Part shown: positions 12,001-48,100 of the stretch, one piece after another
Position numbering within the stretch: position 1 is the first letter of the stretch
How the letters are laid out: each line of letters starts with the position of its first letter
DNA from: Sphyrna mokarran
Lineage: Eukaryota
Assembly (NCBI GenBank): GCA_024679065.1
Contig: JAGIQG010000005.1
Location: 85,560,001 to 85,624,000, forward strand
Direction of reading: 5' to 3'
DNA: 64,000 nucleotides
Notes under the pieces: model-generated
Told to the model about the DNA's origin: nothing
Databases searched by the model: none
What the model saw: the letters and a program-made list of their open reading frames with translations, nothing else
Made by a program: the position numbers and the translations under genes

Positions 12001-12150
12001 CAGACTGAAATTTCTATTTGTTGCCTCCTCCCGGTTCCCATTAATGTTGATGCACCATGCCTTTTCCTGATCCAAGTCTCCTTTTATTGAGACCAACTTT
12101 AATTTCTAAGATAACTCCCCCATCCCCTGCATCTGAACCATCCAAAGAGA
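1..12150. repeat. Tandem array of diverged ~1.8-2.6 kb units (about 6 units here, continuing past the left edge), derived from ancient LINE ORF2 fragments
   Basis: Anchor (g)aatgattccaag recurs at ~12, 2353, 2589, 4947, 7274, 9074 and 11117. Anchor c(c/t)ttgaaa(c/t)tagaact recurs at ~1322, 3936, 6246, 8110 and 10210. Paralogous ORFs 964-1260 and 5888-6205, and 1191-1463 and 6115-6387, are nearly identical. Units are CpG-poor and have no long ORF. Confidence 0.92.
2640..3620 (-). pseudogene. Best-preserved remnant of an AP-endonuclease (EEP) domain plus linker of an L2/CR1-group LINE ORF2 inside the array unit
   Basis: ORF 2942-3523(-) shows EGFMPPGF, ARQTDRGGGIA (R..GRGGG+A), DDVLLIFG (near +++GDFN) and VSDHH (SDH) in canonical endonuclease order. 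Paralogs show RGGGLA (576-899) and VFDAPAEIMVRRH (7224-7469), resembling the post-endonuclease linker. Heavily degraded. Confidence 0.6.
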
Positions 12151-14599: not shown

Positions 14600-17500
14600 T
14601 CAACACCAACAATGAACATTTGGCCCTTGAAACTAGAACTCAGTCGATACTAACTCTCCATCAGCAAATAATCAGATATCCTTAAGATCACCCAAAATAG
14701 TCATTATGAAATCCACTTACGTGCATCGAGACCATTTCCCAAATCATTATTTTCAAACTTCCTTTTCAAATTGCATTACCACTCCGTAAAAGGTAAAGAT
14801 CTTGCTGCTAATCTTTCCAAGTGTAACCAACAGTTTTAAATACACACCAACTTCATCACATCTGCCCAGTCAGTGCCACCTAATTTGTATCCCTTCTGTT
14901 AATTTCCAGTCTCCAGTAATTACCCTTGGTACCATCATTGCTTAAATTGACATTTCTATTCGTTGCTGTATGGTTCCCATTAATATCAATGCACCATGCA
15001 CTTTCTTGACCTGAACTTCCTTTTACTGAGGCCAGATTTCATTTCCAAGATACCTTCCCCAGTCCCCTGCATCCGAACTCCCCAAATTAGATCATATGAT
15101 ACCCTACATCTATCCAGTGATTCTTCAATCACTGCTTTAACAAATTCAAATGCCTTGCCATTTTGGTGAAGGTACACTTCCCAAAACACATCGCTGCCCA
15201 AGGCATATAAGCCGTGGACACCTCTAAATACGTCCACACAGTATAGTATTACAAATTCTATTAAACAGGCAATCAGCAGCATGGCCCTATTTGCAGAGAA
15301 TTTCTTACAAAACCTTGTCCAGACTCCATTGTAACCTTCCCTTCTGGCATTGATGCCCTACCAGACTATAGCCAGTCAACATTACTTAAGAGCTTGCCCC
15401 ACTCCATCTTTCAAATCCATGCTTTTCCTCCCACTCCTGTCTGTTTCATCCTTCTCACATTAGGCTGGTGAACAAAATGTAGATTGTTTTTGAAGGTGCA
15501 GTACCAAATTCCCTTGATCATCTTCTATCTGTGCTTAACATCCTTCCATTGTGTGTAGTTACGTCATATAATATGGACTCATTGCACACTTTGGATACTT
15601 CTGTGAAAGATTGAATGATTCCAAGCTATTGTCTTACTTGCAGACTATGTATCTTGTCGCTTTGCATGTTGGCTGTACACCATCTTCATCTTCTCATGTT
15701 TTCCATAAGTTCTCTTCTATGTCAGAGAAATGGGACAGGTGATGGCTTGGCAGCATTATCCTAATGCGGCTTCAGAATCTACGTTCTGCTGCTGTGTCAA
15801 AGACCAAGTGTAAAAGTGTATCCTTTCAACGTCAAACATTGATAGAATAAATCAGGTGTTAAGTCTGCATTTGATCTCCGCAGGAATTCTATAGCCATCA
15901 GGTTTTGCAGACATGTCTGCCATATCAGTGATGTGAAATGGGTTCTTCATCTGGCTTAGGTAAGTCCTCACCATGTTCAGATCCATCTAATTCGAACCCT
16001 CCTCATCCATTTAACATCTTGCTCCTCGATTTCTCCCTCAGGTCGACATCTCTCACATTTGTAGCACAAGGTTGCACAGGGTACAGCAAAACAATAATGA
16101 TGTGGTGAGCACAGTAGAGCCATTCGTGACCAGTCCAAATATCAAGAATGCATTTAAGAATTGTATAAACATGAAAACTTTATCACAGTTCCCCAAGTAC
16201 CAAGCACAAATATGCAGGATTTGCTTTCTGGATCAAAAGTAAGCTGGCATTTCTGAAAGTGAAATCCATTTCAATTACTGAACTGCTGTATAATCTGTGA
16301 TTGCTGCAAGCCTAACACCTGTCACTCTGGCTTGCAGCATTTATGTGTAATTGAACATACTGATGAGTGATCTGTGTGTTGCCACCGATCTGAAGTGGAG
16401 GCCTGGAAAATCTGCTGACAATAAGGTCTTGTGCTGGAATCTCTGAGGCCACTGGCATGGGGTGTCCTCCAAATTCTGGTGGCATGAATTTTTTTAAGGA
16501 GGTTTATGAGTTACTAAATGCCTGGACAAGCAATGGTGCCTGTGGTATCATGTTTCACTCATTTCCATATATGGGCTGCATCTTCTATTTCCCCTCAGTC
16601 ATATCACACTTCTTTATTGATTTGGCAATTCTTCGGGAAAATCTGTGATTTCCTAGCACTCTGCACAGGCGTGCTGTTTATCCTGGATCTCTGTCAGTGA
16701 TAGCATCTTTTGCTCATTCAAAATACATCTGGGCAGTGTTGTTTTCATCTTGTATTCACAATCCTCTTTCTGTCTGTGAACAAACAGATTGGAAACACCA
16801 TTGAATCTTCCTCATTATTGCTCTTCTCTCCAAGCTAATGTCAAGCCAATGGTTTGTCCACAGTGTAGACTTGGCATTCCGAGGCAGCCCTTTGCTGGTG
16901 AACTACCATCCGAAGGTCCATAGTTGGCTCCCACAATGAGCATTTGGCGTTGAAACTAGAACTCAGTTGACATTAGTTCTCCATTTCTTCAGCAAATAAT
17001 TAATTGAACATCCCTAAGATCATCCCAAAATGGTGACCCAGAAATCCTCTTACGTGCCTTGAGATTACTCCCAAATCATTGTTTTCAAATGTTTTTCAAA
17101 CAATGTTACTCAATAAAGGACAAGAATGTTGCTGCTTACCTTTCCAAGTGTAACCAACAGTTTCAAACACACATCAAATTCATTACATTTGACCAACAAT
17201 CATTGCCACCTAACTCCACTCATTACACTTGGTACCATCCATCATTGCTCACTGATGTTTTTATTTGTTGCCAAAGAATTTCCAAGATACTTCCCTAAAT
17301 TCACTGCATCTCGATCCACCTGATACAATCATACAAAACCATACTCTCAGCCAAGTCTACTCAATTGTCAATTTGACAATTTCAAATACCTTGCCATTCT
17401 AGTGAAGGTGTACTGCCCAAAACACATGCCACTGCCCAAGACGCGTAAGCTAATGACAGCCCTCTAAGTATACCCATATAGTGCGATACAATCGTTGCGT

Positions 17501-17910
17501 AGTCTGTTAAACAGGCAGTTGTATGGCCTCATTTGCAAACAATTTCTTGAATATGCCCCTTGGTCTTTCACCCTTCCCTGGACAAGTTTTCTCATAGAAG
17601 TGTTTTACCATTCTCGTCTGGCCGTTACCTAATATCACTCATGCTGCCTGCCTTACATTAATCCCTTTCTTATCATCCTTTCATCACCTCCAATTCTGGA
17701 TCTGTGCCACTCCACATCATAAGGATCTTACAACCACTTGTTCGGATGCCATTGCAACCTTCCCCTCTGGCCCTGCTGCTGCCCTCTGACCAAGTCTAGC
17801 CAACATGTTTGTAGCTTGGATTCTTGTCCCACTCCCCAGTCCTGACTCCATCTACCAAATCCATCCTAGTATCTATACCCTTCTTCCCATTCCTCTGCTT
17901 CACTCTTCTC
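14600..17910. repeat. Further ~1.5 units of the same tandem family after a 2.4-kb interruption
   Basis: The same anchors recur: cccttgaaactagaact at ~14625, gaatgattccaag at ~15613 and ttgaaactagaact at ~16950. Sub-blocks are in the same order as in 1-12150. Confidence 0.9.
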
Positions 17911-17999
17911 CTCTGGGGATATGATGGAAATTAATGAGCAGGTAGGTTTTTTTTTATGTTGGTGTGGCTGTTGTCTTTGGAATACTTTATGAATTCTCA

Positions 18000-22910: not shown

Positions 22911-22929
22911 AGCAAGTACTTTCTCCTTG

Positions 22930-23035
22930 GATCTATTTTCCCTCTGGTGGAATCCTGCTAATCTACCTAACCTGCACATGTTTGGATTGTGGGAGAAAAC
23001 TGGAGCACCCGGAGGAAGCCCACATAGGCACAAGA
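22930..23035 (-). mobile_element. Partial tRNA-derived SINE (HE1/V-SINE-like)
   Basis: ctaacctgcacatgtttggattgtgggagaaaactggagcacccggaggaagcccaca is the reverse complement of the SINE core seen at 35150-35460. Confidence 0.75.
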
Positions 23036-23398
23036 ATCCACACTTCAGCAGGATCCTTCTGATCATCCTCACAAAAGCCTTAAGGATTGACTCTGTAAAA
23101 TCCTCATTTCCAAAGGATATTTTTTCCCCTACTATTCCTTAATCGGTTGAATTAAAGATAAATTAATAAGGATAGCTCCATTCCTTGTGTGAAAGGTCAA
23201 GATTCTGATGGGACATGTGGTTTTCAAATTCGTGCTATGTGTTTCTTATCCTTTAAAAACACCTTTGATTTGTCAGGAATTTGAAGTTTCTTTGCACCAT
23301 GGACAGATTCTGCATTACAACAGTTGCATGTTTTTCTTTTTCTTCTTGTCTTCTTTTGAATGATAGAGCTAGGGCATTTTTCCTGTTGTGTTTGGTCT

Positions 23399-23437
23399 CT
23401 AACCCTAACCCTAATGCCCTAACCCTAACGCCTAACC
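23399..23437 (-). repeat. Short degenerate interstitial telomeric repeat (CCCTAA)n
   Basis: ctaaccctaaccctaatgccctaaccctaacgcctaacc, about 6 imperfect units. Confidence 0.7.
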
Positions 23438-24904
23438 TTATACATAGGTTATAATGGCCCTGCAGGTTATACTGTTAGAGTAAAAATTGGAGGGTTCTGT
23501 CTCCCAGGATCTTAAATGCACACACAAAATCTTGTCTGTGCCATTTCCTAAAATCTTCTGACCTTCACAGCATTGTTTCTGTTGCACTTTTACGTTTGCT
23601 TCAAGCAATCTTACCAATCTCATACTGAATCAGTGTACTAAGTTCACTTAATCTGAAGATGTAGTACAGGACTGTCTTCACCTACACCTCTACCAACAGA
23701 TATATCCACCAACAGATACATGCACAAATGAAACAGTGGCATGTGTTGATGTCCCCTCCCCCCTTATTGAGGAAGTGTCATACTGATATAGGATGATAAA
23801 AACAGTATAGTGCAGGAGGCCATTTAGTCCATTGAGTTTACACCAACTCTCAGCATCCTACCCAAGCCCATGTCATATCAGCGAGGTACAAAAAAGTAGT
23901 GAGGCATAAGATCTTTAATAGATTCAAATCTATTAAAATGAATGCAAATCAGGATCTTGTCTATTGAGTGTGAAAGCAATTACATTGCCAGTGAGGGAGT
24001 GATGGAAATCAGAAATTGCATGTGAGATTTGCTATCTTCAGCTTCCACCGGATCTTCAAACTCATTGGCGATATTGCAAATGAAGAGTCTGGGCTTAAGA
24101 TCCTGCCCTTTGTCTACGCTATTTCCTGTGATCTTCAAACCTTCACTGATTAAGAGGAATCACTCCTGCTTTGTGTTGTATTTTTATGTTTGCTTTCATG
24201 CAATCGCACACTAGACTAGTAAACTCAAGATGTTATACAGGATTGCTCAACAGGCAGATTTATTAAAATGATTCATCAGCTATTACTAACAGGGAAGTAC
24301 GACTGTAACTCCTTCACACATGTTGCAAACTAAATGTTTGCTGCTCACATGATTTATGTCTTCAATACTTACTCAGTCACATTTTCTCTCAAAATATTAG
24401 AACAATTATCACCTCATCAACACATTCTGTAAGAGGACACAATCTTCTTGAATGGATGACAATGAAGGATATTGGTGAAGTTGAGATTCCAAGGTCACCA
24501 TACATCTTTGAGACTGAAATTAACGAGCAAACAAAGAGTCCTTATTCGACCTGCAGTGATAGAAAAATAGAAAAAGTCATTAACACCAGCAACTATTAAC
24601 TAGCATCAGACATAACACTAGTTAACTGTGCCAATCCTTCATTGAGAACAATGGATGCCAAATTCCTGTGATGGAGACACTTTTCATATAAACAACATAA
24701 ATAATCATTGACAAAAGTAAAAAAGCAATTCAACACAAAACAATCTGTTTAATTTTATGTTCATTGTTAGCTATCTTTAAACTGTAAAAAAGTTAACCTT
24801 GGAAGACTTTTAGGCTGGAAGGATTCACAAGAATGACTGTAATGTAACCAAGACTGTGAAATGAACAACTATAGTTAAGCTTCCCTTAGCAATATCCAAA
24901 GACT

Positions 24905-25260
24905 CTTCCCACTCTCAATTATCTGTCACAGATGACATTAACTGAAGAATTAAAAACAAAAAAATTGTTGGACAAACTCAGAAGTCTAGCAGCGCTTGTG
25001 GAAAGATAAGCTGAGTCACAGCTGAGTCGAATCTACAAGTAATTTTACTGTGAAGTCTCCATGTCAATGCTATTGCTGCTGTTTCTGGGCTGGGGACAGT
25101 TAAAGGGATAACAGCTTCCCACATGTGCTGACATCTATCCCACGTCCTAGAATCTTCTACTGATCCTTCACGCACGTGCTAAGCTCCTCACACTATTGAG
25201 TGCAAAAACAGAGATCCGCCTGGCAACAGGGAGCATGCAGAGCTCTGACTGGATGAGCAG
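24905..25260. promoter_or_regulatory. Promoter module copy A (decayed, CpG-depleted)
   Basis: Aligns to copies B-D. TGGCAAC at 25221-25227. CCAAT box mutated to ctgactgg. cgcgtgcgcg is replaced by cacatgtg. MYB consensus ACAGTTA near 25096. Confidence 0.6.
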
Positions 25261-28060
25261 CAGGGGGAGGGGAGGAGGAGATCAGGCTGCATGCACGGAA
25301 TGGAGGCGTGCGGAGCCAGATGCAGCATGCACCATTGTGGGTGGACCAGTTATTGGAGCATCAGGCTATAGAGCCAGACACTGTCTCAGTGTGGACTTGT
25401 GCACCTATTGTCCATTCTTCAGTATGCTATACTGATTGATTTATGAGGAGATTCTAAGCTAAGCACTTGCAGCACACTAGCTTGCTGGAGCTGCACTGCG
25501 ATCACTTGCCAGAGCTTTGTGGACAGCGCAGGTAGATATAGATAGAAGAATAAAATTATCAACCTTGCAGAGAAAATTCCTTTTGGTTCCCCTCATTAAA
25601 TCCAATTACATCTATTTCTTTTTTGAAGTTCATTCTTGTGATGATGGCTAACAAATCCAACATTTATTGCCCACCCCATTGACATTGAGCTGCCTTCAAG
25701 GATAGCTGCAGTCCAAGATGAAGGTGATTCACAATATTCTGTAAAGCAGCCTAGAAATTTGATCCTGCAACAGTGAAGGCACAAAAATAGTAGCAAAAGA
25801 TTTGGACTTGAGCTTGTAGAATGCAACTGATGACATGACAACACACCGGCTGCCCTTGTGTGGACAATTGGTATTTGGGTGTTATGTCAGACATCATGCC
25901 AAAACAGGAGCCATAACCCCTTTGGGCTAGACCCTCAAATTTTAAAGTACATGCCACAGACTTTACTGAACAGCGATAGTTCCTGCGTTAAGGTGACATT
26001 TGTCTCATCCAAGATGCCAGTAAGGATGTGTGCAGGATACATCAAAATACCGTCTTGAAAGTTATCTTCAATATAGGAAACTAGTTAGTTGAACACATTT
26101 TTTTCCCTCCTCATTCCAGGTAAGAAAAGGGGAGGACACCATCCTTCAAACCACCCAGACCTCAAATCAGCTCTTAGGAGGAAGCAGGGGGTTTGCTAAA
26201 AGAATCATCAATGTCTTCACCTGCACTCTCCACCAGCACAGACACACAACCTTGATACTACTTCCTCTTCAGCATTCCACATGGATATAAATGAGTGGTA
26301 TGTGTTGCTGCCTTATTGAGCAGTTGTCATACTGACATAGGACTACAGAAACAATACAATGAGAAGGCCATTTGGCCCAGTGAATCTGCACATCTCACCC
26401 AGGCACATAACATGCTGGCAAAAAAAAGAGGTGAGAAGATCTGGTGATAGGGGTGTATCATTACATTATATTCAAATTTATTAGAATGAATATAAATCAG
26501 ATTCTCACCCATTATGGGCATCAACATGGATAATTCACTGGCAAGGGGATGGTAGAAATCAGAGATTGTCAATAAGGTTTGAGACTTTCAGGTTTTGCCA
26601 GATCTTGAAACTCAATGATGATATTGCAAAGAGAACATAGGCTCAAAATCCTTCCCTTCATTTGCCACATTTCCTGTGATCTACAAATCTTCACTAAGAG
26701 GAATGACTACTGGTTTCTGTGTTGTATTTTTATGTTTGCTTCATACAAGCTTACCAATCTCACCCTAGACAAGTAAACACACTTTATTTGAAATGTAGTA
26801 CTGGAATTGCTCAGCCAGATTTATTATTAAGAGCTGATGAATTATTTTAATAGGAAAGCTATTCCTTCACATCACATGTTGCTGAATAAACAAATTGCAA
26901 TTCTGAGCAACATTCTGATAAAGGGTCATCCAGACTCAAAACATTACCTTGATTCTCTGTCCAGATGCTATCAGATCTGCTGAAATTTTCCAACATTTTC
27001 TGTTTACGTCTAAACAACATTTGCTGTTCACATGGTTTACAAACTTGCTATTTACTTATTAGCAAATTCTTTCTTAAAGTGATATTAGAACAATTGTCAC
27101 CTCGTCGCCATATTCTACAAGAGGACACGTCTTCTCAAAAGAAACCCAGTGAAGATTATAGGTGAAAATGAGAGACTCCATGGTCACCATGCATCAACGA
27201 GACTGAAGTCAATAAGTAAATGAGGGAGAGTTCATATTCGACCTACACCAGGGATAGAAAGAAAACATCATTAATACTAGCAACATATGAACATCAGGCA
27301 CAATATTACTTGCCAATCCTTCAGAGTGAAGTACAATATGCCAAGCCTTCAGAGTGCAAATGATGCCAAATTCCCCAGATAGAGGCACACCATCCATGTA
27401 AACAGCACCACAAACAGTAACTTTGTAAAAACAAATCAAAACTTTTCCAAAAGTTCACTTTAATCATAACAATTGATTTTGGTTTTAGTTAACATTTGCA
27501 AAGAGTACTTTGAGACAAAAATCCACTTAAAGGAGAATGACAGTTTTATTATTCTGGTATGATTTTGTGATGAGTACATGTCCAATGTGCACCTTCATGG
27601 CTTTATCAGTCAATTGTTCAGCAACACTATCAGTCAAAGTGGATCTGAGACTTACATGAGATGAGAAGCTCCTGTATCTGTCTGAAACAATCAGTATGTT
27701 GAAATTTTAGCAATCACAAGACATGTGATGTCTCCAGGATAGCTACCAAGCTCTGCAAAAGTTAAGACCCTCAGTTTCAAGTGACGAAATAGCACTACAA
27801 TTATTTGTAGAAATAAAACACCTTTAAAAGGTGCCTCATTGTCAAAACAACATTTGCATCAAATCCACATAATATACTAAGATTCTCAGTCAGATGACCA
27901 GAAGCTTGGAGGAAAGAGATAGGTATTGATGAATTTAAGCTGGAAGAATGAACCATAATCGAGGAGAAAAAAATGCTAAATACACTTAAAAATGTTTAAT
28001 TACACCTGCTGACTAATAATTTTCTTTAAAAAAGAAAAAAGTTAATGGGAAGTTTTAAGT

Positions 28061-28470
28061 ATCTTCCTACCCTCAATTACTTGCTACAGGCAACCGGAAA
28101 AGGAATAAAAACGGAAAATTCTGTTTAAATTCACCAGATCCGACAGCACCTGTACAGAGAGAAGCTGAGTTAATGTTCCTCTATAAGCGCCTTTACAGTG
28201 AAGCCTCCATGTCGATGCTGTTGCTGCTGTTTCTGGGCTGGGGAACAGCTAAACGGACGACAGCTTCCCGCGTGCGCGCTGACACATTTCCCAGACTCTT
28301 CCACTAACCCTTCGCGCGTGCGCCCGGGGTTCTCACGCCATTGGGCGAAAAGAGGGAGATCTGCCTGGTAACAGGGCTCTGATTGGATGAGCGTGGATGA
28401 AGAACCGGCTGCCCCGCTAAAAATTTTGGCGCGGATATCGAGAAGCGGCAAAATGCCGCGCGCTAATAGC
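28061..28470. promoter_or_regulatory. Promoter module copy B
   Basis: tctataagcg; two cgcgtgcgc (NRF1-like); TGGTAAC 28366-28372 (RFX half-site); ATTGG 28382-28386; E2F-like TTTGGCGCG 28425-28433. CpGs are retained. Confidence 0.7.
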
Positions 28471-29130
28471 CAAGGTAGGAAAAATGCAGAGCAGATTAAC
28501 AAGCACCTTCATGGCTACCTCATTCAATTGGTGTGCAACAATTTATCACAGGGCTGAATCTGTGAAGAATATTGGATGCGAGGCTCCTTCATCTGTTTAA
28601 AACAGTGATTATGTTCAACTCTTAGCAACCACGAGAATTGTTTCGAATGTATGTCTCCACGGTTGCCTAGCACGTTCTACAAGTGTAAGACAGTTTCAAA
28701 AAGTGACAAAAGGACTGCACAATTATAATATAAAACTTAAGGTGTCTCATTATCAAAACAAAATCTGAGTCACAACCACAAACGATACTAAGTCAGAGTA
28801 CCAGGACCTTGTATAAAAGATGTAAGTTTATCGAACTTTAAGCTAGAGAAATAAACAATCGAGGGGAAAACATGATAAATTATTAACACTTTTTAAAAAG
28901 TTCAGCTTAAATTTTCTTTCAATTAATCTTCGAGGATATTACAGATACAGAAATTAGCGTGATTCACGATAAAAGTCGTAAAGTGACCAAGACTGTGAAA
29001 TGAAGAACTGGAAAGAACTTCTTTTAGTCAGCAACATTCAAAAATACTCCTCCTACAGTGTACACACAAACATAAAATGCTGGAAACTCAGGTCTGACAG
29101 CAACTGTGGGGAGAATAGTGCCAAGACTCT

Positions 29131-30000
29131 GCCTACCCTCGATTACTTGCTACAGACTACACTAAACAAATAATAAACACGCAACGTGTTGGATAAATTC
29201 ACGCCTGGCAGCGCCTGTGCAGAAAGAAGCTGAGTTAATGTTTCAAGTCTATAAGCGTCTTTACTGTGAAGTCTCCGTGTTGACGCTGTTTCTGGGCTGG
29301 GGAACAGCTAAAGGGACAACAGCTTCCCGCGTGCGCGCTGACACCTGTTCCATTGCCCACTTTTCCACAGGTCCTTTGCGCGTGCGTCCGAGTTCCTCAC
29401 GCCATTAGGTGGAAAGAGGGAGCTCCGCCTGGCAACAGGGAGCGTGCGGAGCTCTGATTGGGTAAGTGGGGGACGGGGTAGAACAGACTGCGCTCGCAGA
29501 ACGGAAGTGGAGAGGATTCGAAACGGCGCGTTTTGTAGGGCCGCGGGAAAAAATGAGTATATTAATTCGGAGAGCGGGGCTTTCTGTCGAGGGGACTTCT
29601 GTCTAGTCTTTTACGTCAAGCCAATTAAACAAACTCAAATTACGTTCGGACAAAGTAAAAGGGGCGGCTCCCCAAAAGGAAGGGGGAGCAGCCCAAACAA
29701 AAAAATAAAAAGTACAAAGAAAACTTAAGACACGTTAAATCAAAATGTGATTGTCGGGGTCTATAACGCATCTCAGCACCGGCGGTGCCCAGCGGGCACA
29801 GAAGGCGTCCACTGTGCCTGCGTCGAGCAGGCGGGGTCAAATGCTGCGCGTGCCGATGAGTTGGGGAACATGGGAGGACGAAGCGGGGAGTAAAGTGCTG
29901 AGTGCATTAACTGAGGGCAGGGCGGGATGTGGAGCGCGGTTTTAGAAGGGCGGGGTGAGACGAGGTCGGTCTGGTCCTGTGTCTGTGTGCACAGGGCAGC
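29131..30000. promoter_or_regulatory. Promoter module copy C plus CpG island
   Basis: TGGCAAC 29430-29436, CTGATTGG 29454-29461, ETS CGGAAGTG near 29502, E2F-like cgcgggaaaa near 29542, and several GGGCGG GC boxes. CpG-rich in a CpG-poor background. Confidence 0.75.
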
Positions 30001-30080
30001 TTCTGCTATAATGGGGAGCCTCTGTCCTTAGTGGGGAGGGAATAAAACTGGGAAGTCCGGATTAGCAGCAGAGAGCATCG
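29950..30080 (+). other. Putative alternative non-coding first exon (distal) of tdrd15; start approximate
   Basis: Ends gagagcatcg|GTAAGAAG (GT at 30081-30082). Paralogous to the donor at 36840 and directly downstream of CpG island C. Confidence 0.5.
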
Positions 30081-31689
30081 GTAAGAAGTAAAAGTTCAAA
30101 AATTAGTGTTGGATTGGAAAGAGTAAATATACTTCCATTATCTGCGTGGCGCACGCTGCAGAGATTTACAGTGGTAGCCAATCCCCAAATAATCCAATTC
30201 ACAAAATGTTTTACTCTATAAAAAAAAACTTATGTTGCCTTAATATTAAATTTAAATCTTCCCGTATTTCTGTTCCTATCCAGGCACTATTTAACCAACT
30301 GATAAACACCTAAATGGGTGTATTTAATACTCTTGTGCAATTATAAATATGAAAAAAACATCTCCATGGTTTATTGTATGTATGTCATCTAACAAATATA
30401 GTAATGGAATTATTCTTAGTTAACAATAAATTAAATCATGGTTTTGGCAACTTCAATATTCTATTTTATTTGGAGGCTCCATTTTTGAACAGATAGAATA
30501 TATTGTAAAAACAGAAAATGCAGTCAAAATTCTGCATGTTTGGCAACATTTGTGGAGAATGAAATTGGCTTAAGTCTGTAAGATTCTTTGCGGCATTTTC
30601 TGTTTTTATTTCCAATTCCCAGCATCCTCAGTATTTTGCTTTTATGTTTCATTGTATCCTGATTGCTTTTATGCAATAAAACTGTTTTTACACGTTCACA
30701 AGTAATTCTGCAAATTTCTACAATATTCAATGAGGATACAGTGATATATATGCGCAAGGTGGCTAAAAGGATACACCATTTAGAACCTGGTATTTATCAG
30801 GGTGGGTGGGGATAGCAGAGAGATCTGCTCAAAATATTGTAAAATTGTGGGTGGACCATTTAGGTAATGTGTCTTGAAAGCCACAGATTGTCATAGTGTG
30901 TACCTTTGCACTTTTTGGCTTGAAGTACTGATTAATCAGTGAGGGAATTTGGGTGGAGTTGAATATTTGAAAATCTGAAGGAAAAACTAAGTAAACTATT
31001 ATAATACTTTCTAGCTAGCTTACTGGAGTTCAGGTGCAATCACTTGCCAATCAGATTTCACAGCTCAGGGGTACCTTTAATTATGGTAGAAGAGTAAAAT
31101 TAAACACCCAGCCTGTAGAGGAAAGAGGCTGATGCTGTCCTCCAAACTTTCAGAGCAACTCTTAAAAGGAAGCAGATGGTTTCTTAAAGGAATCACCATT
31201 ACTGTGTACTGTCCAGCACCATGAGATTACTCTCCTATTCAACCTTTGTGTGATTATAAATGAAAGAGTGATATGCATAGATAGGCCATCTTATTGATGA
31301 GGTGTCATTCTATGTAGAATCATAGAAGTCTACGGTACAAGGGAAGCCATTCAGCCCATCAAGTCTGCACTGACTCTCAAAGAACATGTGCGTTGGACTA
31401 GATCATGTCAGTAAGTGACGGGGAAAGATCTGGCAAGGAAGGATGTGTATTCAAATTTATTGAAATGGATGCAAATCAAGTTCTCGCCTATCATGGACAT
31501 GAAGCTGATCCCATCATCGTTAAGGGGCAATGCAAATTGGAGATTGATTTCGTCAATGAGTTTTGCAATTTCCGTGTTCCACTGGATCTGAAGCCCCCGC
31601 CGGCAATCTTGTGAACCCAGCATTTGTATCGTTTCCTGTTGTTAGGAATGTCTTTGAAGAGTTGTGTAAAAAGAATCACGAAGGAGGCC

Positions 31690-33955
31690 TCATAACTTAA
31701 ACACTGGGAACTCTCGATTGCATGTGTCCACTGTCCACAGAAAAATCTTAAACTGTTTAACTAGGTTCCACACTGGAAGGAGCTAATCCCCCAGTGGTCA
31801 CCTGACTTGCACACTTAAAGTAGCTGTGCATACCCCAAATTTGTGTACACATATTACCCCTTCCCCTTTATTCCAAAACTCCCAGTGAAATATATATATA
31901 TATACAAAGAGCATTTCAAACTACAGTCCCCAACGTAAAGTTTATTCAGGCAGTTCACACAGACATGATGAGTCCATCAGCAGGATGTAGGTTTTGTGTA
32001 AGTTGCTTACACCTTTCAGGAACCTGTTCTGAGTATTTTCCAGGGATTTTGGAAGATCCTGCAGCTCAGCATGGGTGTCCATCAAATGGGCTTCAGGTGG
32101 CTCTGCCCCTGGTGCTGTTTCCTACTTAAGGGTGGCTGACCCTGACTCTGGAACTCTAGGTGTGGGGCACACCAAATGGATCATCCTGGATGGTTCTGTT
32201 TTTGTAGGGCATCCCACTTTGATGCGGTTCTGTGATCAACAGCATGTCTCCTCCAATGCAGCTTTCTCTGCTCTCTACTGTGCAGGACAAGTCTCCTGTT
32301 TGAGCCAGTGTCCAGTTCTCCCCAGAAATATATAATTCCTGGCCAGAACAAACTCCCCTTTCTGGAAAATCCTCAAATTTCACACTTCCTGCATTTCTGT
32401 CCAATTTGATTCCTCTCAAGCACATCTTAGATCTCCTCCAGCCGCAGCAGGTCAAACATAGCTCTCAATTTCTAGTTGAACATCAAGAAATCTGGCGAGC
32501 ATTGGGTTGTTGCATTTAGCATTTTGTGGTACATACTCAGCAATTTATTTACTTATCTGCTGTCTTAGTGACCTATTTCCTTGAGAGACCTTCAGAGATT
32601 GTTTCAAGAACTGTACAAATTGTTCCACTGGATCGTTTGTCAACGGGTGATAAGTTGTGACCTCACGTCTGATTCTGTAGTGTTCTATATACTCAGTGAA
32701 ATCCTGTGCCACAAACTGGGCTCCATCGTCAATTACTTGTTCTGGATTGCCAAATTGGGCAAATATGTCATCGAATTTGTCTGGAGTCACTTGATTTCGT
32801 AGCCACTATCTCTGGCTACTTAAGTGGCCATCTATTACTTTTAAGTATAAGTTTATTTATTAGCATTACAAATAGTCATACATTAACGCTGCAATGCAGT
32901 TACTGTGAAAATCATCGAGTTACCACACTTCAGCATCTCTTCGGGTACACTGAATTTTAGCATGGCCAATGCACTTAACTGACAAGTCTTTCAGATTATG
33001 GGAGGAAACCAGGGCGCCCAACAGAAACCCACACAGACACAGGAAGAATGTGCAAACTCCACATTGACAGTGACCCAAGCAACAGGGCTAACCACTGTGC
33101 CATCGTATTGCCCTACCACTGTTCCAAAGAAAACATAAATTCTCCGCCACGGCAACTGGGGCCACTCCCATGGATGAAGAGACGACATCTTCCATTCCAA
33201 GGTGCAGTAGTCTCACAATTCCACTTTCTTTTCAATTTGGGCATTAACATTCAGTCACCAAAAACAGCTTCTTGCTATTTCTTTGGCATCGTTCGAACAT
33301 CTATCCACTTAATGAGCTGGAAAATGATAGTTCTCAGACCCCATACTAAAACATCCACCCAACACAGCCAACTTCAATCTCTGAATTGTATACAGCATAA
33401 CTCCAGGTGGTTCTTACTATTCATCCACTCTCTCAGGCCTCATTATCAGGCTCAATATCAGGCTGTTCCAAGTGGCATTCCGCATCTGGTTAGAGGTTAC
33501 TAGAACTTTATCTTTTTGCGTAAAATATATTATCTTCAAATTCCAGCCAAAAGCATCTTTATCCCCAAAGGCAGACTTTACAGAGCATCCACATTGCCAC
33601 ATTCCATGGACTAATAGTCTCAGATTTGATGCGAGTAAACTGATAAGGGGCCCTTGCAATTGACAGTATTCCCATGTACAGCCCTAAGATGGGTGTCAAA
33701 GGCTTATGGTCTTCCAAAAGTGCAAAATTTCTTGACACCAAAGATGATACCTAAGCCTTCTTTTTCCACTTAAGCATACTTTTCTTCAGTCTTTGTCAAC
33801 GATTGTGATGTGAATGCTATGGGTCCTTCCTCTCTTTTCGGCATAATGTGGAACAAGACAGCCCAACCCCATAGGTGCAAGCTGCAGTGGTAACTTGGAT
33901 TGAAATGAACTAGTACTTTCAATTTTTTCAACGCCTGCTCCTCACTCTTCCACAG
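31690..33955 (-). mobile_element. Gypsy/Ty3 LTR retrotransposon 3' half (RNase H, integrase, PPT, probable 3' LTR remnant), decayed
   Basis: GPIAFTSQSLTKTEEKYA*VEKEGLGIIFG and LEDHKPLTPILG (RNase H); HPWEWPQLPWRRIYV; FAQFGNPEQVIDDGAQFVAQDF..YHPLTND..EQFVQFLK (integrase core). A polypurine tract lies on - at ~31856-31870. Confidence 0.88.
32830..33118 (-). mobile_element. tRNA-derived SINE nested in the Gypsy integrase
   Basis: gggaggaaaccagggcgcccaacagaaacccacacagacacaggaagaatgtgcaaactccaca...gctaaccactgtgcc is the reverse SINE core and head. It interrupts the integrase frame. Confidence 0.8.
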
Positions 33956-34150
33956 CTACCGTTTACCTATGTGCTCCTTGAATGTTTGCTGTTGCCTATT
34001 CACCGTCATCACTTTAAGTAACACTTTCCAATCTATCACTGACAACTCATGCCTTATATCATTGTAGTTTCCTTTATTATGATTCGGGATCCCAGACTCA
34101 GAATTAACGTCACTCTCCATCTTGATGAAAAATTCTAACATGTTAAAGTC
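33956..34150 (-). mobile_element. CR1 LINE ORF2 fragment (post-endonuclease)
   Basis: SDFNMLEFFIKME..NKGNYNDIRHELSVIDW matches the CR1 SDHN.IEF...KGNY..MR.EL..+DW pattern. Confidence 0.7.
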
Positions 34151-35149
34151 ACTTATCCTCAAGAGACTTCCAGGAACTGCAAATGGAGACACTTCCTGCA
34201 CACACGCTTACACTGGGCATTGGATATGTTCCCAGCCTCCCACAGAGAGCACAAAGCATACTGAAGGGATTCAAGAAGGCAGCTCACTACCACTTTAAGG
34301 GCAACTAGGTTTAGCAATAAATGCTGATCTGACAGCAATGCCTCTGTCCCATGAATGAATAAAAGAGATCAAATGCAATTCTCCAGGGCCTTTCTTTTCT
34401 TTTCCTCATTACTACCAAATATAACCTTTAAAAACAATAAACCACAAAAAGGCCTCTGAATCTTTAAGTCATAAAAATAGTAAATGCTTACCCGACCTTA
34501 CCAATTACTTAGAATCAGTCCTTTCTCTTGTGTGCTGTATACTGCAGCAGGCAAGACCAATTTCTGAAGAGTTAAAAGTTAGAAAGTGAACAGAAAAAAC
34601 AAAAAGCACCTCTTTCCCCTCTGCATTGAATTCCCACTCAGCTCCCAATCCCCGACAGCTCCACGCTCACCCTGGCTACGTCTTCGGACAATTCTCTCTT
34701 GCAGTTTGTGCACAAAGCTCACTAGATGTGGTATTCTCGAACAGATCACAGTAAAGGTATTGGTGAAGTTGAGACTCCAAGGTCATCATATATCTTTGAG
34801 ATTGAAACTGGTGAGTGAATCAGAACAAGTTCACATTTGACCTACAAGAGAGATAGAAAACAGAAAAGTTAATTAACACCAGCAACACATCAGCAACATC
34901 AGACAGAACATCATACACTGTGCCAGATCTTCAAAGTGAATGATGCCAAATTCCTGAGATGGAGGCACAAATATTAATTTTGAGAAAAGAAAAGCTATCA
35001 ATACTTTGTTCATTTCCTTTATATTGAAAAAAGTTAATCTTCGCAAATGGTACACTGAAGAAAAAAGACATTTTTTAAAACAGAAATTTTTATTGTTTCA
35101 GTATGATTTAATGTTTCCCTTGCATGTATGAGCATGTGTATCCAACATG

Positions 35150-35460
35150 CATGGTACCACAATGGTTAGCACTGCTGCTTCACAGTTCTAGGACACAGGT
35201 TCAATTCTAGCCTTGAACCTGCATGGACTGTGTGAAGTTTGCACATTCTCCTCATATCTGTGGGTTTCCTCCAGATAGTCCAGTTTTCTCCCACAGTCCA
35301 AAGATGTGCAGGTTAGGCTCATTGGTCATGCAAATTTGTCCCTTAGTATCAGGGGGACTACAAGGGTAAATTCATGGGGTTACAGTGATAAGGTGGGATT
35401 GTTGTCAGTGCAGGTTTGATGAGCCAAATGTCTTCCTTCTGCACTGTAAAGATTCTGTTC
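35150..35460 (+). mobile_element. tRNA-derived SINE (HE1/V-SINE-like)
   Basis: A/B-box head aatggttagcactgctgcttcacag..ggttcaattc; core gtttgcacattctc..gggtttcctcc..cccacagtccaaagatgtgcaggttagg; CR1-like tail ctgcactgtaaagattct. Confidence 0.85.
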
Positions 35461-36060
35461 TGTGATGCACCTTTTAGGTTTCAGTCAGTTGAAATACAGC
35501 ACTTGATATGCTAGATGAGAAGCGCCAGTATCTGTCTAAAATTGTCACTATGTTGAACTTTAAGAGACCAGAACACTGCATTTGCCTGAGGAAGACACAG
35601 GAGTCGAAAGCTCGCGTTTTTACTATCAAATAAATCGGTTGGATTATAAATTGGTGTTGCTAAATTCTTACTGAGAACTTTAAGATACCAGAAGACATAT
35701 AATATGGAATGCCTGACTCCAGAATAGCCAACAGAGTGCTGCACTTAAGACCCTCATAGTTTCAAAAATGATGAAGTGGCACCACAATATTTATGTATAT
35801 ATAAAATACCCTTAAGGTGCCTCATTAGTAACACAAAACTTGCATTAAATCCATCTGGCTTGCATTAAATCAGTATCTATCTGGCTAAGATATTAAGCCA
35901 GAGGACCAGAAGCTTGAACGAAAGAGACAGCTGTTGAGTTTAAGCTGGAAAAATGAACTACAATCGAGGAGAAAAAAATTCTAACAAATTTGTTTAATTT
36001 TAACAGCTAATATTTAATTTTCTTACCAAAAAAACTTGATATTTGAGGAGTTTGAAAACT

Positions 36061-36950
36061 CTTCTTACTCTCGTTTACTTGCTATGGACGACAGTGAATA
36101 AGGAATAAAAACGGAGAATGTTGGACAAATTCATGTCTGGCAGCGCCTGTGCAGAGAGAAGCTGAGTTAAACTTTCGAGTCTATAAGCGCCTTTACTGTG
36201 AAGTCTCCATGTTGATGTGGATGCCGTTGCTGGGCTGGGGAACAGCTAAACGGACGACGACACTTTCCCGCGTGCGCGCTAACACCTGTCCCATTTCCCA
36301 GACTCTGCCACTAACCTTTCGCGCGTGCGCCCGAGCTCCTCACGCCATTGGATGGAAAGAGGGAGATCCACCTGGCAACAGAAGCGTGCGGTGAGCTGAT
36401 TGGATGGGTGAACGTGGGGGGGGGAGAATGCGCAGGCTGCGCGCGGTGAACTGTTGGCATAGGCGTCGAAGGCTGTACAAGTAGACTGGAGGAGGGCGGG
36501 GCTAGATCTTGTCGACCGTGTGGGCGGGGCTACCTGACGATTGCGGGGGGCGGGGGTGGAGTCAGAGGCTGCGCGCGCGCCGAAAGGACAGGGCGGGGTC
36601 AATATATTAGCAGTGAGGGCGGGGCAGGATTGGAGGTGGGGTCAGGCTGCGCGCGCCGGAAGGACAGGCTGGGGTCAGGATATTAGCTGGGGAACGGTTT
36701 GTGTGTATGGTGGTGGCTGATAGTGTAGTATTAGTTTGTGGTGGGTAGCCTCTGTTAGCAGTGGGGAAGGGAGAAAAACTGCAGATTCCGGAGGCTTCAC
36801 CACACAGAACAGTTTTAGCCCGTGGGGCGGAGAGCACCGGTAAGAAGTTGGAATGGAAAGAGTTCACTTGGGGACGTAAATATCCCGGCCCCATCTCTCC
36901 ATGGGCGTATCCTGCCCGTCCCCGTCCCCCCCCCCCCCCCCCCCCCCCCG
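36061..36950. promoter_or_regulatory. Promoter module copy D plus CpG island: likely proximal tdrd15 promoter
   Basis: TGGCAAC 36373-36379, CTGATTGG 36396-36403, multiple GGGCGGGG boxes, GCGCGC runs and MYB-like AACGGTT near 36693. It sits immediately upstream of the donor at 36840. Confidence 0.8.
36650..36839 (+). other. tdrd15: Putative non-coding exon 1 of tdrd15 (start approximate); intron 36840-42106
   Basis: Donor agagcaccg|GTAAGA. Acceptor tcttttctttacAG at 42105-42106 lies 5 nt before the ATG at 42112. Confidence 0.6.
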
Positions 36951-41100: not shown

Positions 41101-42111
41101 CCAGTAAGAAGTCTCTCAATGCCAGGTTAAAGTCCAACAAGTTTATTTGATAGTAAACCCACTAGTTTTTGGGGTTTGCCCCTTTGTCAGGTGAGTGGAA
41201 AATCTGTCACAAACAGAGCATATAAAGGCATGTACAGTCCATGTCATAACAGTCAGGGACACCCAGACTCCATGAATGAATTTAAAATATTATTAAATGT
41301 ACCTTAAGTTTTGCATGTATTCTTTACATGTAGTTAAGTAAGGATACGTTATGATGACCTATGAAAATTCTGTGTAGACTTACAATTTTTAAAAAACTGA
41401 ATCAGGCTGACATTTAGACAATGAAATAGCTGTGTTTCAATCATTGACTTCAAAGATTCAATTTTGAAACTTCATATAATCTATGTTAATACTCCATGTC
41501 CACTTGTGTGGAAATTTCACAGTAGTTTCATTGTAGTGTTAATGTAAACCATACTTGTGACTAATAAATAAACTTTTACTTTTTGCTAGCCAGAGAAGAG
41601 TAGGACAGTTCTTCCTTTTGAGCTGGCCAACATTTATCCCTTAAACACCCAAAACAACTTAACTGGCCATTCATTACATTTGCTGTTTGTAAGAACTTGC
41701 TCTCTGTAGAAATTTGTGTAGAAATAATAATATCATGTTTTCTTGAATTAGAAAGGGTCTACACTTGTAAAAAAAATAATCAGTTGGCTGATTCGGGTTG
41801 CGGGAACTCCTGAGGAAGTGAAAATTGTGATACAAATGCAAGTTTGTTCTTTCTAATTACTGTTTTGCTATGCTAATTTATATAACATTGCTTGCAATAC
41901 TTAGATTATAGACTCCTTAAGAATAACAATGGTAATAAACCATTGTATGTATGATATAGTCTATCCTCGTAACTGTTTATTCTGATGTTTGATCTGTACA
42001 TGAGCACAATCAAAAATGAAATTGTTATTATTTTGAGTTTAAGGTAGGCTGTCTGATGTCTAAAGATTTCTGTTTCAGTAACTTTTTTCAAATCTTTTCT
42101 TTACAGGCCTT

Positions 42112-45100
42112 ATGTGTTCAACTTTTACTCTACCTGTTCATAACTTACACCTTGACCTGAGTATAACCCATGTGGAATGTTGTCCAGAAAACATATTAGT
42201 ACATTTCTGGGCTCGGTACAACAACGTGTGTGAATTGGACTATCACATATTGCACAGTGAAGTGCAGAATGCAGCAAAGATTAATGCCAACATTGCAGTT
42301 GGTGAGTTTTGTTTCGCAGAGGATGTTTACAATGCAGGATGGCATCGAGGAAGGGTAATAAGAAAAGATAAAGAATCATACAAAGTATTTCTCATAGATG
42401 TTGGTATAACATTGACAGTTGATTCAAGGCACATTGCTACTGCCGAAGAGAATTTATTTCAATTGCCACCAAAAGTAGTATGTGGCATATTTGCCAATAT
42501 AGTGCCAGTGAAAGGAACATGGTCCCCAGCAGCAGTTAAGTATTTTTCATCACTGGTAACCTTTAGAATCAAAGGTCACATTGAAGACATCTTAATGGAA
42601 CAAATTATGTTGGTGGATGTCCCCAATATTAACCAAAAGCTCTTTGAACTTGGTTTAGCAAAAATCCTTGATGGCAGTACTTTTCATTTTGTACTGGAAA
42701 TTTCAGGAGATTTACTTGGATGTTCTGGCAGTGAAAATCCTAAAACCCGGAGCATAAATAAATGCTGCAGGAAGCCTGTGCTTGATAAAACAATTATATT
42801 ATCTCCTAGTTTCCAACGTATTCTGGGTGTTTTGAGTCCCAGTTTGCAAACCGGTGTTACAGAGACAGTGAAAATAACATCTGCTTCAGGTCTTCATAAC
42901 TTCTACTGCCAATTGAAAAGGCTGGCTTCAGAGCTTGAAGCAATGTCCAGAGATTTGCATTGTTACTATGAAAATGAAGGAAAAAAATTAAATGATGAAC
43001 CTGTTGACAATTTTGGTGCACTTTGTGCTGCAAAAGGTAAAGATGGAAAATGGTATAGGGGAGTTGTAAAGAAACTTTTAACCTCTGGCCAAATAGAAAT
43101 TTGGTTCATGGATTATGGAAGGACTGAAATTGTATTTCCCGATCATATCAAAAAATTGAAGCCAAACTTTTTTATGATGCCACTGATGTCATTTCCTTGT
43201 GCACTAACTGGCTTATCAAACCAAACAGAACAATGGATAAAATTGCAAACTCAAATTATTAAAGAATCTTTGTTTGAGGAAACATTGACTATTTGCATTG
43301 ATTCCTACTCCTGTGAAGAGCACTTGTACTATGTTACACTTTACAAGCAGAAGAACATTATTACGCATCAGATGACTGAAATGTTGGCAGAAGTAAATCC
43401 AGAGGAAAATAAGGATATCAATGGACAATTTGGAAAATTTCCAGAAACTAAAATGACAGCAACTGGGAAATGTAATTCAATGCATCATAGATTAGCATCT
43501 GTTGGGATGAAAATAAATGCTTCCTATATTGGATTTGTTGAATATGTAGTTAACCCATCTGACTTTTGGATTCGAACATCGGAACACAATGACGAATTTG
43601 AATGCTTAATGATCAACATTACAAACCACTATAGCAATATTGGCATAAATGAAGAACTCCTTCAGGAACCAGTACCTGGTCTGTTTTGCTGTGCTAGATA
43701 TAGCAAAGACCTACATTACTACAGAGCAATTATTACTGAAGTACTTGACAACCAACTGAGAGTGTTCTTTGTTGATTTTGGAAATGCTGAAATTGTAGCA
43801 CTTAGTGCTGTGAAATGTCTGCTTCCTGAGTATACAAATTTACCAGCTTTGGCTATGAATTGTTCTCTTGCTCATATTTTTCCAATTGAAGAAGTGTGGA
43901 CGAAAGATGCCACTAATTTTTTTAAGAAAATAGTATTCAATAAACAGCTTTTTATTGAAGTAATCTCAAGACAGGGCAGCAAATATATGATTGATATGGA
44001 AGATATGGAATGCAGAGAGCAGTCAACTATTAGTGTACTAATGCTTCAAGCTGGATATGCTGATTTTTGGAACGTGCAGTCAGGCAGTACATTGCTTCAA
44101 CATGGATGTATGCTGAAATCTTTGGGAGCTAGGGCAACCAAATCAACCACAAGTGAGACAAGGCTATACACAGATAAAAACTTGGTGTTGAAAAATTCAC
44201 GTGGCATTCCAGCATCAAACATTCTGGCACCTGCTTTATTTCCAGCTGGTACAATGAGTAATAATTTCTCATATGTACGTCTTACCATGCCAACTTGGAA
44301 TAAAGAATCCAAAATAGCATCACCGTATAAACAACAAGTGTTTAAACTTGGGTCTGTTCTAGATGTGAGAGTATCTCATGTAAATTCTCCAGCAGAATTT
44401 TGGTGCCAACTTCAAAGTAACGCAGATCAACTTCAATTACTTATGAGGAATTTACAGCTTTATTACAGTACTCCAAGGGACGCTTTTCAACTTGGACGTA
44501 TTGGGTGTGTTGCAAGACACCCTGAAGATGGTCAGTGGTATAGAGCATCAGTTATCCAAAGGAATTTTCTAAAGGAAGAGGTTACTGTATTGTTGGTTGA
44601 TTATGGTATGCAGCAAGAAATAGCTTTGAAAAATCTTTGTGCTATCAATCCAGACTTTCTTCAACTCGAAGGACAGGCATTTAGATGTACCCTTAACAGC
44701 ATAATTCAATCTGTAAACCAGGACCCTTCTGTTTGGGATAAAATTTCCTGTAATACATTTAAGCACTTCATTGACAATAATTTAATTTCTGGTGAATGTC
44801 TGAAATGCACAATATTTGCTGTGGGTCTGATGGATAGAAAGGGTTTGTGTAATGTGGTAGACCTTCATACACCAATAATGAATGTATGCCAGTTACTTTT
44901 GGATATGGGGCTAGCTACTTGTGTTGAATCACCATGTTCATTTAGTCCCTCAGTTCAGCTATACACACCTTATTACAGTGACCATGGTATAAAAATTGGA
45001 AGTGAAGAAAAGGTGTATGTAACTCATGTGTCTAGTCTGTCAAAATTCTATTGTCAACTTGATAAACACACTTTAATTTTGGATACACTTAGGACTGAAG

Positions 45101-48100
45101 TGGACATTGTTAGCAAGCAAATGCAAGGACAAAGACTAGATCTTGACAAAACCAGCATGTGTTTAGCCAGATATTTTGAAGATGGTCAGTGGTACCGTGC
45201 TATAGCACGTTCTGTGTATTCACCTGAACATTTTAAAGTGTTTTTCATAGACTATGGAAACACAGAGATAGTTGATAAAAATGATGTGGTTCCAATTCCT
45301 GAAGATGCAAAAAATCTGATTTTGATACCAATGCAAGCAGTGAAGTGTTCTTTGTCTCTTAGTCTTCCAAAACCGTCAGATGAATGTATTGCCTTATTCA
45401 AACAAACTGTAATGGGAAAACCTCTAACAGCCTTTGTGATAGCTAAGAAGTCTGATGGTCATTTGGTTCTTAAGCTTTATGATGAAAGTGTGAAAATCAG
45501 TTCTCAAATAACAGAACAAGACATGCACCATTATCAAAGAGACATGTTGTGCCTTGATGAAACAACACGGCAAAGTAGCAATTCTCTCCATCCAGCAAAA
45601 AACGATTCTTCCGCAAAACAAATGGTAACTGGGCAACCTGGTTACTTAGCACAGTTGATCAAAGAAACAAACAAACTGATTCGTTCCTATATTGGACATA
45701 AAAATAAAGACCAGAACCACAGCCTTATAAAGGAAAATACACCATGCAAGAGAGGAAAACATTGCAAAAATAAATGCTCAAAGCATTGCCAGAATGAAAT
45801 TATCCCTAAATTTACTGCACAGTTAGCAAAACTGAAAACAACATGTAACAGAAAGAAATCGGGTGAAACAGACCAGGTAGGCAAGGCAACATTCCAACAT
45901 GGGAAGACTAAGATGGCATCACGTTATGTAATTAACCCTAAGGAGACATTGCCATCTGCTATACTTTGTCACCTTGTGCAAAACATGCCTGCAAAACACA
46001 AGGCAGTGGATCGTTTTGAAATGATTGGTAGATCTAGAAAACGTTGTCAGAGCAAACGCCTTCTTCAAAGTCTGACAGATTTGCCTCAAGCTAAGCTGGT
46101 CACTAGATTAAAGTTTGAAAAATATATTGGATGTGGAAATAGTTCTTCAGACTACTTCATAGAACTGGTACTTAATGAGTACAGGACCCCAGATCTTGTA
46201 AAAAAGGCGAGTGACGCAACATTTGCTGAAACTTATCTTAAGGATTTTCAGAGTAAACATGGAAGTGATGATATGGATGTGTCTGTAGAAAATGAATCTT
46301 TGCATTCTGCTTTTGTAAAAGAAATCAAATTAAATCCATTGTGCATAAAGTTAATGGATTTTGCCAATATGTCAGATTTGACTACTTTGGAAACTGGTCT
46401 GCTTAAGAAATTCTTGAAGTCAAAATTGCAGGGTACACAATCTGATGGATTGTGGTGTTCTCAAATTGTTTCACATTTTACAAATGAATTAACTAAGGAA
46501 TATATAATTTGTGAGTTTGTGCAACAGTCTAGTCAGTTTTGGAAGGTACATCTCAGTCATTGTACTCCATCCTCAGATGACAAATTCTTAAGTGAGATGG
46601 CAACCAGCATGTCAAGCAACCAGAAGGCACTCAGTAAAGCATTAGAAAAAGAAATCTCTATTTCTGAGCTAGCTGCATCTTTACAGGACTTTAGAAATGC
46701 ACCTGAGAAAATTAGCATTGAGGATCAACACAAATGTACAAAAATTATGTCTTATGTGCAACAGTATAAAGATAACAAAGAATATGCATTTTGGACAGGC
46801 AAAAAATTACTTGAGAAGCTTGTGTGTTCAAGAAAAATGGCTTTGCTTGTTAAAGCTGTCTCTTTAAATGTGTCAAATAATGACAATCTCAGTATTAAAC
46901 TTAATGCAAGTACTGAGGAGTTGTTTCCTTTAACTGTGGCTGTTGATGTAAAAAGAAAAAATGTGTCATCACTTGCAATTAAAAGAAAAAAATCTCACTC
47001 GCAACAATTTTCAGAACAGGACAAATCCATAATCAAACTTCTTTACTTGGAAGATAAAAGGGAATTTTATAGTACTGACATTTTATTACAATGGCTTAAA
47101 GTATCAAATGACAGTATTTTGAACTTTACTGAACAAGTCCTTATTCGTCCAAGGAATACCACTAAAAATTTTCAGCTGCTATTAAAACAATATCTAATAT
47201 CGTCTCCCAAGTTTGTATTAAATGATCAGAAATTTATTGAATTGCTTCAAAAATTGGATTCTGGATTTTGGGAGGTTGCGATTAGCCAAGATGCCACTTC
47301 TCTTATTGAAAAATATCAAGCAATGGTCCAAAGAAATGACACAATTATCACTTTGCAAAATTGTTCACCAAATTTAGATGGAAGCATAAATAAAATTGTT
47401 TTGTATCAATTCCTGCAAAAGCAATGTTTGAAGTCATCAAAAATGCTGCTTTCTGGTGATAACAACATAATATCATTGAATCCAGTTTTGTGTGGTAGCA
47501 TTGAAACTAGAATAGGGTACACCGGCTTTGCTACTTCTGTGATTGACCCTTCAGAACTCTACATTCAGCTTGAAAATACCTTTGGAATAATGGAAACACT
47601 GTCTTCACTCCTTGCTCAGCTATCAGATGATTTTCATCCTTTACCTCATGCCTTATTGAATCCTGGTGTAAGTTGCCTAATCAAGCTTGGCATAGATGAG
47701 CAGTGGTCTATGGTGGAAGTCTCTGAACAGTTTGTCCTTGTTAGAACTGTTGATTGTGGACATTATATTTTTGTACCATCTTCAGATTTGAGCAGACTGA
47801 GAGAACTTCCTCAACAACTTGCAAAAATCCCATGTCTAACTAACCACTGCAGTTTAAGCAGTGTGGTGCCTTCAGTTGGATGTAATTGGACAGATAAAAC
47901 CATTATTTTCTTTCAGAAATCCTTAAGCGAACAGATTTTGACTGTATTTTTCAGACAGCATAATCCTAAGTTGCTTTGGGAAGTAGATCTTGTTGTAAAT
48001 AATAGGAGTATTGCAGAAGATTTGCATGCTGCAGGACATGCTGCTTTTCTGAAAGAAACTAACAATTGCTTTACGGAAGATTCGGTTAGCAGCTCTGAGA

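Follow-up and report, generated by a model that had tools for sequence, protein, structure and literature searches.

The window analysed here, a stretch of 64,000 nucleotides from the shark Sphyrna mokarran (assembly GCA_024679065.1, contig JAGIQG010000005.1, positions 85,560,001 to 85,624,000 of the forward strand, numbered below from its first letter), carries four paralogous modules upstream of the TDRD15 gene. We interpret these as a four-fold tandem duplication of a two-way TDRD15 promoter, with two candidate first exons, three cores that retain their CpGs and, probably, a spliced non-coding RNA that runs divergently, a reading that, taken as a whole, we consider slightly favoured by the sequence. 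Its components differ in strength: the modules are very probably duplicated copies of the TDRD15 promoter region, copies 2 to 4 (numbered from the left) probably remain active promoters, and use of the leftward splice donors in a stable spliced RNA appears a little better than evenly balanced. The shared core would act as a two-way CpG-island promoter, driving TDRD15 rightward and a spliced non-coding RNA leftward, and the module is likely the left half of that promoter, facing TDRD15. The latter point was absent from the earlier sequence-only reading of this DNA, which had proposed a leftward non-coding first exon repeated four times.

Module copies at the 5' end of TDRD15

The four copies were recovered by BLAST at 71-79% identity (E 1e-29 to 1e-91), with copy 1 at 24899..25290, copy 2 at 28062..28392, copy 3 at 29123..29502 and copy 4, the most complete, at 36055..36451. 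They had been described as a promoter module of ~330 bp; four copies indeed exist, but they are not free-standing units, since their flanks have been duplicated along with them on both sides (23762-24661 with 26311-27344, 27729-28374 with 35714-36381, and 30187-31106 with 37177-37790). The modules thus sit within larger tandem duplications of the TDRD15 5' end. A tree of the four copies set copy 1 apart and left copies 2 to 4 as a trio without branching order; copy 1 is ~75% identical to the others, a flank-like value, and copies 2 to 4 are mutually ~83% identical.

A search of the 2.77-Gb genome with copy 4 returned at least 40 matches, namely the four copies and 36 others spanning only ~100 bp of the module, these counts being lower bounds. 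When the core and the right island were used as the query, all four matches obtained were the four copies at this locus. A repeat interspersed genome-wide had been named as the finding that would speak against the module, and this holds for the ~100-bp part, which is dispersed, but not for the core, which matches just the four local copies. The dispersed-repeat fragment lies at 36096..36194 in copy 4, occurs in copies 1 to 3 as well, and brings an inherited minus-strand acceptor-like site; dispersal was confined to this 100-bp part, and a full-length dispersed family was not encountered.

The RFX half-site that had been noted to the right of the leftward donor was confirmed at a distance of 300-315 bp in all four copies (25219-25229, 28364-28374, 29428-29438 and 36371-36381). 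An inverted CCAAT box further to the right was present in three of the four (ATTGG at 28382, 29457 and 36399), with copy 1 reading ACTGG instead; a second such box, on the left side of the RFX half-site, survives intact in copies 2 and 4 alone (28340 and 36347), and copy 1 has mutations in both boxes. The RFX-to-CCAAT gap measures 15, 4, 15 and 14 nt in copies 1 to 4, respectively, the complete spans being 25219-25252, 28364-28386, 29428-29461 and 36371-36403. Copy 2 has lost 11 nt here, about one helical turn, a change under which both factors would still face the same side of the helix. String matches to consensus sequences gave putative NF-Y, E2F, NRF1 and SP1 sites in copies 2 to 4, including E2F-like sites at 36265 and 36318 of copy 4, and RFX, NF-Y and E2F/NRF1-type factors may be the proteins that bind the core. 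No MYB-type site (consensus YAACKG) was kept at a paralogous position across the four copies, nor did any of them contain a cyclic-AMP response element (CRE) string in the RFX-to-CCAAT interval.

Against an observed/expected CpG ratio of 0.29 for the window, copy 1 had a value of 0.36, and copies 2, 3 and 4 reached 1.0, 0.95 and 0.97. At 18 alignment columns with CG in at least two of copies 2 to 4, where the retention of those copies is partly by construction, copy 1 has CG at two and TG or CA at ten. In copies 3 and 4 the ratio was 0.9-1.1 on both sides of the core, a level not reached in copy 1. These values suggest that copy 1 was methylated and then decayed, and that copies 2 to 4 are unmethylated in the germ line. 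Of the four serial start sites envisaged by the sequence-only reading, at most three are thus likely to be active, as copies 2 to 4 retain their CpGs but copy 1 has decayed. Between copies 2 and 4, the core is identical at 168/194 positions, compared with 240/304 in the left flank (p=0.03), and pooled identities were 815/979 and 1377/1782, respectively (p=2e-4), with the pairs being non-independent and the rightward exon pair excluded.

Predicted exons in both directions

The TDRD15 coding exon occupies 42107..48234 of the plus strand, with an acceptor AG at 42105-42106, an ATG at 42112 and 2040 open codons encoding Tudor domains. The closest relatives of the 42112-48234 reading frame are cartilaginous-fish TDRD15 proteins, foremost that of Mustelus asterias (87% identity). 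Splice sites were scored with home-made matrices rather than MaxEntScan or SpliceAI, the donor matrix being built from approximate frequencies; the TDRD15 acceptor, 5 nt 5' of the ATG, was used as a control and ranked at the 99.6th percentile of 8252 AGs. As the frame begins at this acceptor, an upstream exon is required. Annotated TDRD15 isoforms of Pristiophorus, which have two different leaders, and of Leucoraja differ in their leaders, diverging exactly at the point of the 42107 junction.

Two candidates for such an upstream exon were found, each within a GC-box CpG island to the right of a module. The island behind copy 4 (36452..36841) contains the predicted main first exon, with a donor GT at 36840-36841 (99.7th percentile), and that behind copy 3 (29790..30082) a predicted alternative first exon, with a donor GT at 30081-30082 (98th percentile). 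The two islands are paralogous, and both end in plus-strand donors predicted to splice to 42107, whereby copies 4 and 3 would supply two alternative TDRD15 first exons; no rightward exon lies behind copy 2. The copy 4 junction would read S-T-G-L-M, as in one Pristiophorus isoform, a reading that 3 of 982 plus-strand GTs would give; reading through the intron end alone, however, yields T-G-L-M, hence we downgraded this match from junction support to a weak hint. Both Pristiophorus leaders end in T-G at their shared junction, which is compatible with two paralogous first exons in that genus also.

On the minus strand, the four donor nonamers and their GTs were exactly as had been described (24912-24911, 28070-28069, 29136-29135 and 36068-36067 in copies 1 to 4). 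Invariance of the GT, which had been offered as fitting a leftward first exon, does not distinguish it from background, as 8 of 19 GTs in the aligned module were invariant compared with 107 of 295 dinucleotide positions; an accompanying caveat had allowed for chance. The GT in question was nonetheless the most donor-like of 12 invariant GTs on either strand, ranking at the 83rd, 97th, 98th and 93rd percentiles of 6843 window GTs in copies 1 to 4, and lies ~35 nt outside the dispersed-repeat fragment.

Copies 1, 2 and 4 each have, on their left, a paralogous segment in which a minus-strand pyrimidine tract and YAG/G acceptor are preserved; the exons would have 24550, 27242 and 34841 as their first bases. 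These would open leftward second exons at 24371..24550 for copy 1 (acceptor at the 99.55th percentile), 27062..27242 for copies 2 and 3 (99.44th) and 34671..34841 for copy 4 (99.83rd), the 3' ends being approximate. Within the 8252 AGs, acceptors at the 99.4-99.8th percentile are comparable to that of TDRD15, and this was the sole well-scoring site among 14 three-way invariant AGs on either strand. Leftward transcription would start in the interval bounded by the left CCAAT box and the E2F-like sites, and splicing would join 36068 to 34841, and 29136 or 28070 to 27242. With start sites that were guessed, none of the predicted RNAs of two exons contained an ATG frame of more than 48 codons. A second acceptor-like site was identified 78-79 nt before the donor in copies 2 to 4 (first exon bases 28149, 29214 and 36146), and could let a downstream copy act as an internal exon.

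A leftward non-coding first exon is therefore plausible in the light of the strong paralogous minus-strand acceptors, the CpG retention and the change in strand composition described below, but not on the strength of the invariant GT, which is uninformative. The leftward starts had been termed antisense; the predicted RNA would instead be divergent from TDRD15, antisense overlap arising only between the copy 4 RNA and a TDRD15 transcript started at copy 3. A sequencing run presumed to be RNA, which contained 0.06 of the words, was compared with 18500-32900 (copies 1 to 3 but not copy 4) and gave mostly repeat-type matches of 85-95% identity and no joint at a predicted donor, an uninformative outcome. 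Rfam returned no gathering-level match in the window and one sub-threshold match in 14000-38000, hence no known small-RNA family.

Several further features accompany these exons. The predicted leftward second exons fall in sequence (24420-24600, 27110-27290 and 34700-34900) whose plus strand resembles the end of a Gypsy-type pol gene, a resemblance without a database hit. A decayed minus-strand segment at 32300-32850 reads like a retroelement integrase core, with weak PDB matches only (E 0.8) and no Pfam match. A segment of ~100 nt occurs in six copies along the locus, among them 21341-21455, 23575-23671, 24122-24265 and 26670-26826 and one 83 kb left of the window; several of these have a donor-like site on the minus strand, and none matched Rfam. 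A short degenerate run of telomere-like hexamers is found at 23399-23437. Immediately after TDRD15, at 48933-49909, is a young inverted repeat, probably a DNA transposon of small size, whose arms of ~245 nt are 99-100% identical and enclose 486 nt.

A scan of 138 open reading frames in the 150 kb to the left and 50 kb to the right retrieved four minus-strand frames with lipid-transfer domains, located about 123-139 kb beyond the left end of the window. These may represent APOB, judging from their domains and from cattle gene order as given in a passage of PMC9355974, though direct family searches did not confirm the name. The possibility that the leftward RNA is an APOB leader was judged unlikely at this distance.

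Strand composition, the neighbouring array and rival explanations

The GC skew changed sign at the core in all four copies, from -0.07 to -0.14 on the left to +0.16 to +0.43 on the right, with the left values weak and the copies non-independent. Outside repeats, the combined skew was negative to the left of the modules, its 95% interval excluding zero in three of the four flank segments, and was slightly positive, albeit non-significantly, in the TDRD15 intron.

Downstream of the predicted leftward RNA lies a locus-specific tandem array of ~2.3-kb units, which occupies 1..17600 and continues about 19 kb beyond the left end of the window. Identity among its ~16 units is mostly 65-75%, and 85-87% in some pairs, and the units are purine-rich on the minus strand; a genome search placed 13 of 13 matches inside the array. 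Pfam searches with 12 open frames of the array yielded weak matches only, the best relevant one being an endonuclease/exonuclease/phosphatase domain (E 0.038), and a separate set of 12 read-through frames gave no hit, hence no recognisable transposon protein. The array had no match in the protein database, and nothing meaningful in PDB; no sharply conserved sub-element was seen along its unit. Between array paralogs, where substitution asymmetry was not significant, A>T and C>G changes leaned towards gain of T and G on the minus strand (C>G, p about 0.04-0.07, uncorrected). The segment at 17600-22000 is duplicated at the left end of the array, about -31 to -20 kb, with 64-74% identity, and heavy duplication marks the locus all the way from about -31 kb to +38 kb.

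A number of observations weigh against a two-way promoter with a spliced leftward product. The donors are only moderate, with that of copy 1 weak, the GT is no more invariant than background, and every splice score derives from home-made matrices. The module-internal acceptor is shared by five of the six dispersed repeat copies fetched, and is thus inherited; elsewhere on the contig, at a distance of 9 Mb, the second-exon region has a partial relative in which that strand is likewise rich in pyrimidines, which weakens the second-exon acceptor as evidence and suggests that it may be inherited too. As the copies share ancestry, their skews and splice-like sites amount to one draw rather than three or four. 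Copies 3 and 4 agree at just 83/120 positions of their rightward exons, below the flanks, and gene conversion or an absence of methylation, instead of selection, could account for the higher identity of the core. On the minus strand, A>G changes did not outnumber T>C among array paralogs (ratios 0.74-0.92, none of them significant), and the densities of U1 sites and polyadenylation signals had no clear strand bias.

In one rival account, the modules are copies of the TDRD15 promoter that yield nothing but short unstable RNA to the left, and the donors and acceptors are passengers of the duplicated block. The background level of GT invariance, the inheritance of acceptor-like sequence from repeats, and the lack of both a transcription-type substitution asymmetry in the array and a U1 or polyadenylation strand bias all speak for this account. 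Conversely, a donor and an acceptor stand in the correct order and strand in three copies, copy 2 retains its CpGs and both CCAAT boxes despite having no rightward exon, and the CpG-rich part reaches ~200 bp left of the core; on balance we regard passenger splice sites as the less probable account, though one with appreciable weight. That the module is an interspersed repeat with incidental promoter likeness is very improbable and largely refuted, for although 36 of the 40 genome matches listed are dispersed, these span only ~100 bp, and the core matched only the four copies, all inside larger local duplications.

The leftward RNA might alternatively be a precursor of PIWI-interacting RNAs (piRNAs), with serial germ-line promoters feeding a duplicated, transposon-remnant-containing locus of 55-65 kb head-to-head with a Tudor gene. 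This is improbable on present evidence, and marginally more so is its fuller form, in which a shark piRNA-precursor locus would have gained serial starts through repeated duplication of the promoter it shares with a piRNA-pathway Tudor gene, under RFX and NF-Y and with no conserved A-MYB. The heavy duplication of the locus is in keeping with the idea, yet no MYB-type site is conserved at a paralogous position, the array shows no substitution asymmetry, and, with no recognisable transposon protein or relatives outside the locus, it offers no evident target. TDRD15 is described as testis-specific in hamster in a passage of PMC12548254, and passages of PMC9925758 report that segmental duplications are over-represented in the pachytene piRNA loci of mouse and human and that chicken piRNA loci are enriched for tandem-duplication variants, but depleted of segmental duplications. 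RFX motifs are stated to be enriched in some mammalian piRNA clusters (PMC4408798, in part). A piRNA-precursor role is possible, and unsupported. Were piRNAs to be made from the leftward RNA, the locus would inform the timing of the origin of duplication-rich piRNA loci among vertebrates, as a pachytene-like, duplication-prone example outside amniotes. Without piRNA output, this would be an ordinary promoter duplication at a gene whose loss is reported to leave male hamster fertility unaffected (PMC12548254, same passages).

We retain the duplicated two-way TDRD15 promoter as the favoured reading. It offers four paralogous promoters of similar age, of which one is complete, one has an insertion, one lacks a rightward exon and one appears methylated and decayed. 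Such copies amount to a two-way germ-line promoter dissected by nature, and could reveal the elements that set direction and protect CpGs.

Comparison with known systems

Zhang, Haws and Wu reportedly described, in 2004, genes with multiple variable first exons that are spliced to a shared exon. The TDRD15 modules are similar in that tandem promoter-exon cassettes are predicted to splice to common downstream exons, but differ in that the cassettes face both ways and each leftward cassette has its own duplicated second exon. The succession of an RFX site and an inverted CCAAT box also recalls the W/SXY module of class II genes in the major histocompatibility complex (MHC), as outlined in part of PMC7866136. 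Unlike SXY, in which the spacing is fixed, the spacing varies among the modules, which lack a CRE-type X2 site and are not at an MHC locus.

Closer parallels exist with bidirectional promoters of vertebrate messenger and long non-coding RNAs, which, in the sections of PMC10887517 concerned, combine CpG islands that cover the two first exons with a midpoint at which composition changes and with NF-Y, E2F, NRF1 and SP1 motifs. The TDRD15 modules share the islands, here over two predicted first exons, the switch in composition and the motifs (NF-Y, E2F, NRF1-like and SP1); they differ in that the whole unit, a putative promoter, occurs in four tandem copies with varied decay. With amniote pachytene piRNA loci, as portrayed in parts of PMC9925758 and PMC4408798, the region has in common a duplication-rich non-coding locus, an RFX motif and a testis-gene context. 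It departs from them in its shark host and in lacking a conserved MYB site.

Partial duplication of a bidirectional promoter is known from the primate BRCA1/NBR1/NBR2 locus. In each case a two-way promoter, at TDRD15 a probable one, would have been duplicated locally together with its first exons, leaving behind a non-coding partner and copies in decay, although TDRD15 has four copies rather than two, is a germ-line gene, and has no second protein-coding gene nearby, the APOB-like exons lying more than 120 kb from the window start. Within the library searched, no paper paired TDRD15 with shark. Duplication of a bidirectional promoter is a known kind of event, of which the shark TDRD15 locus would be a further instance.

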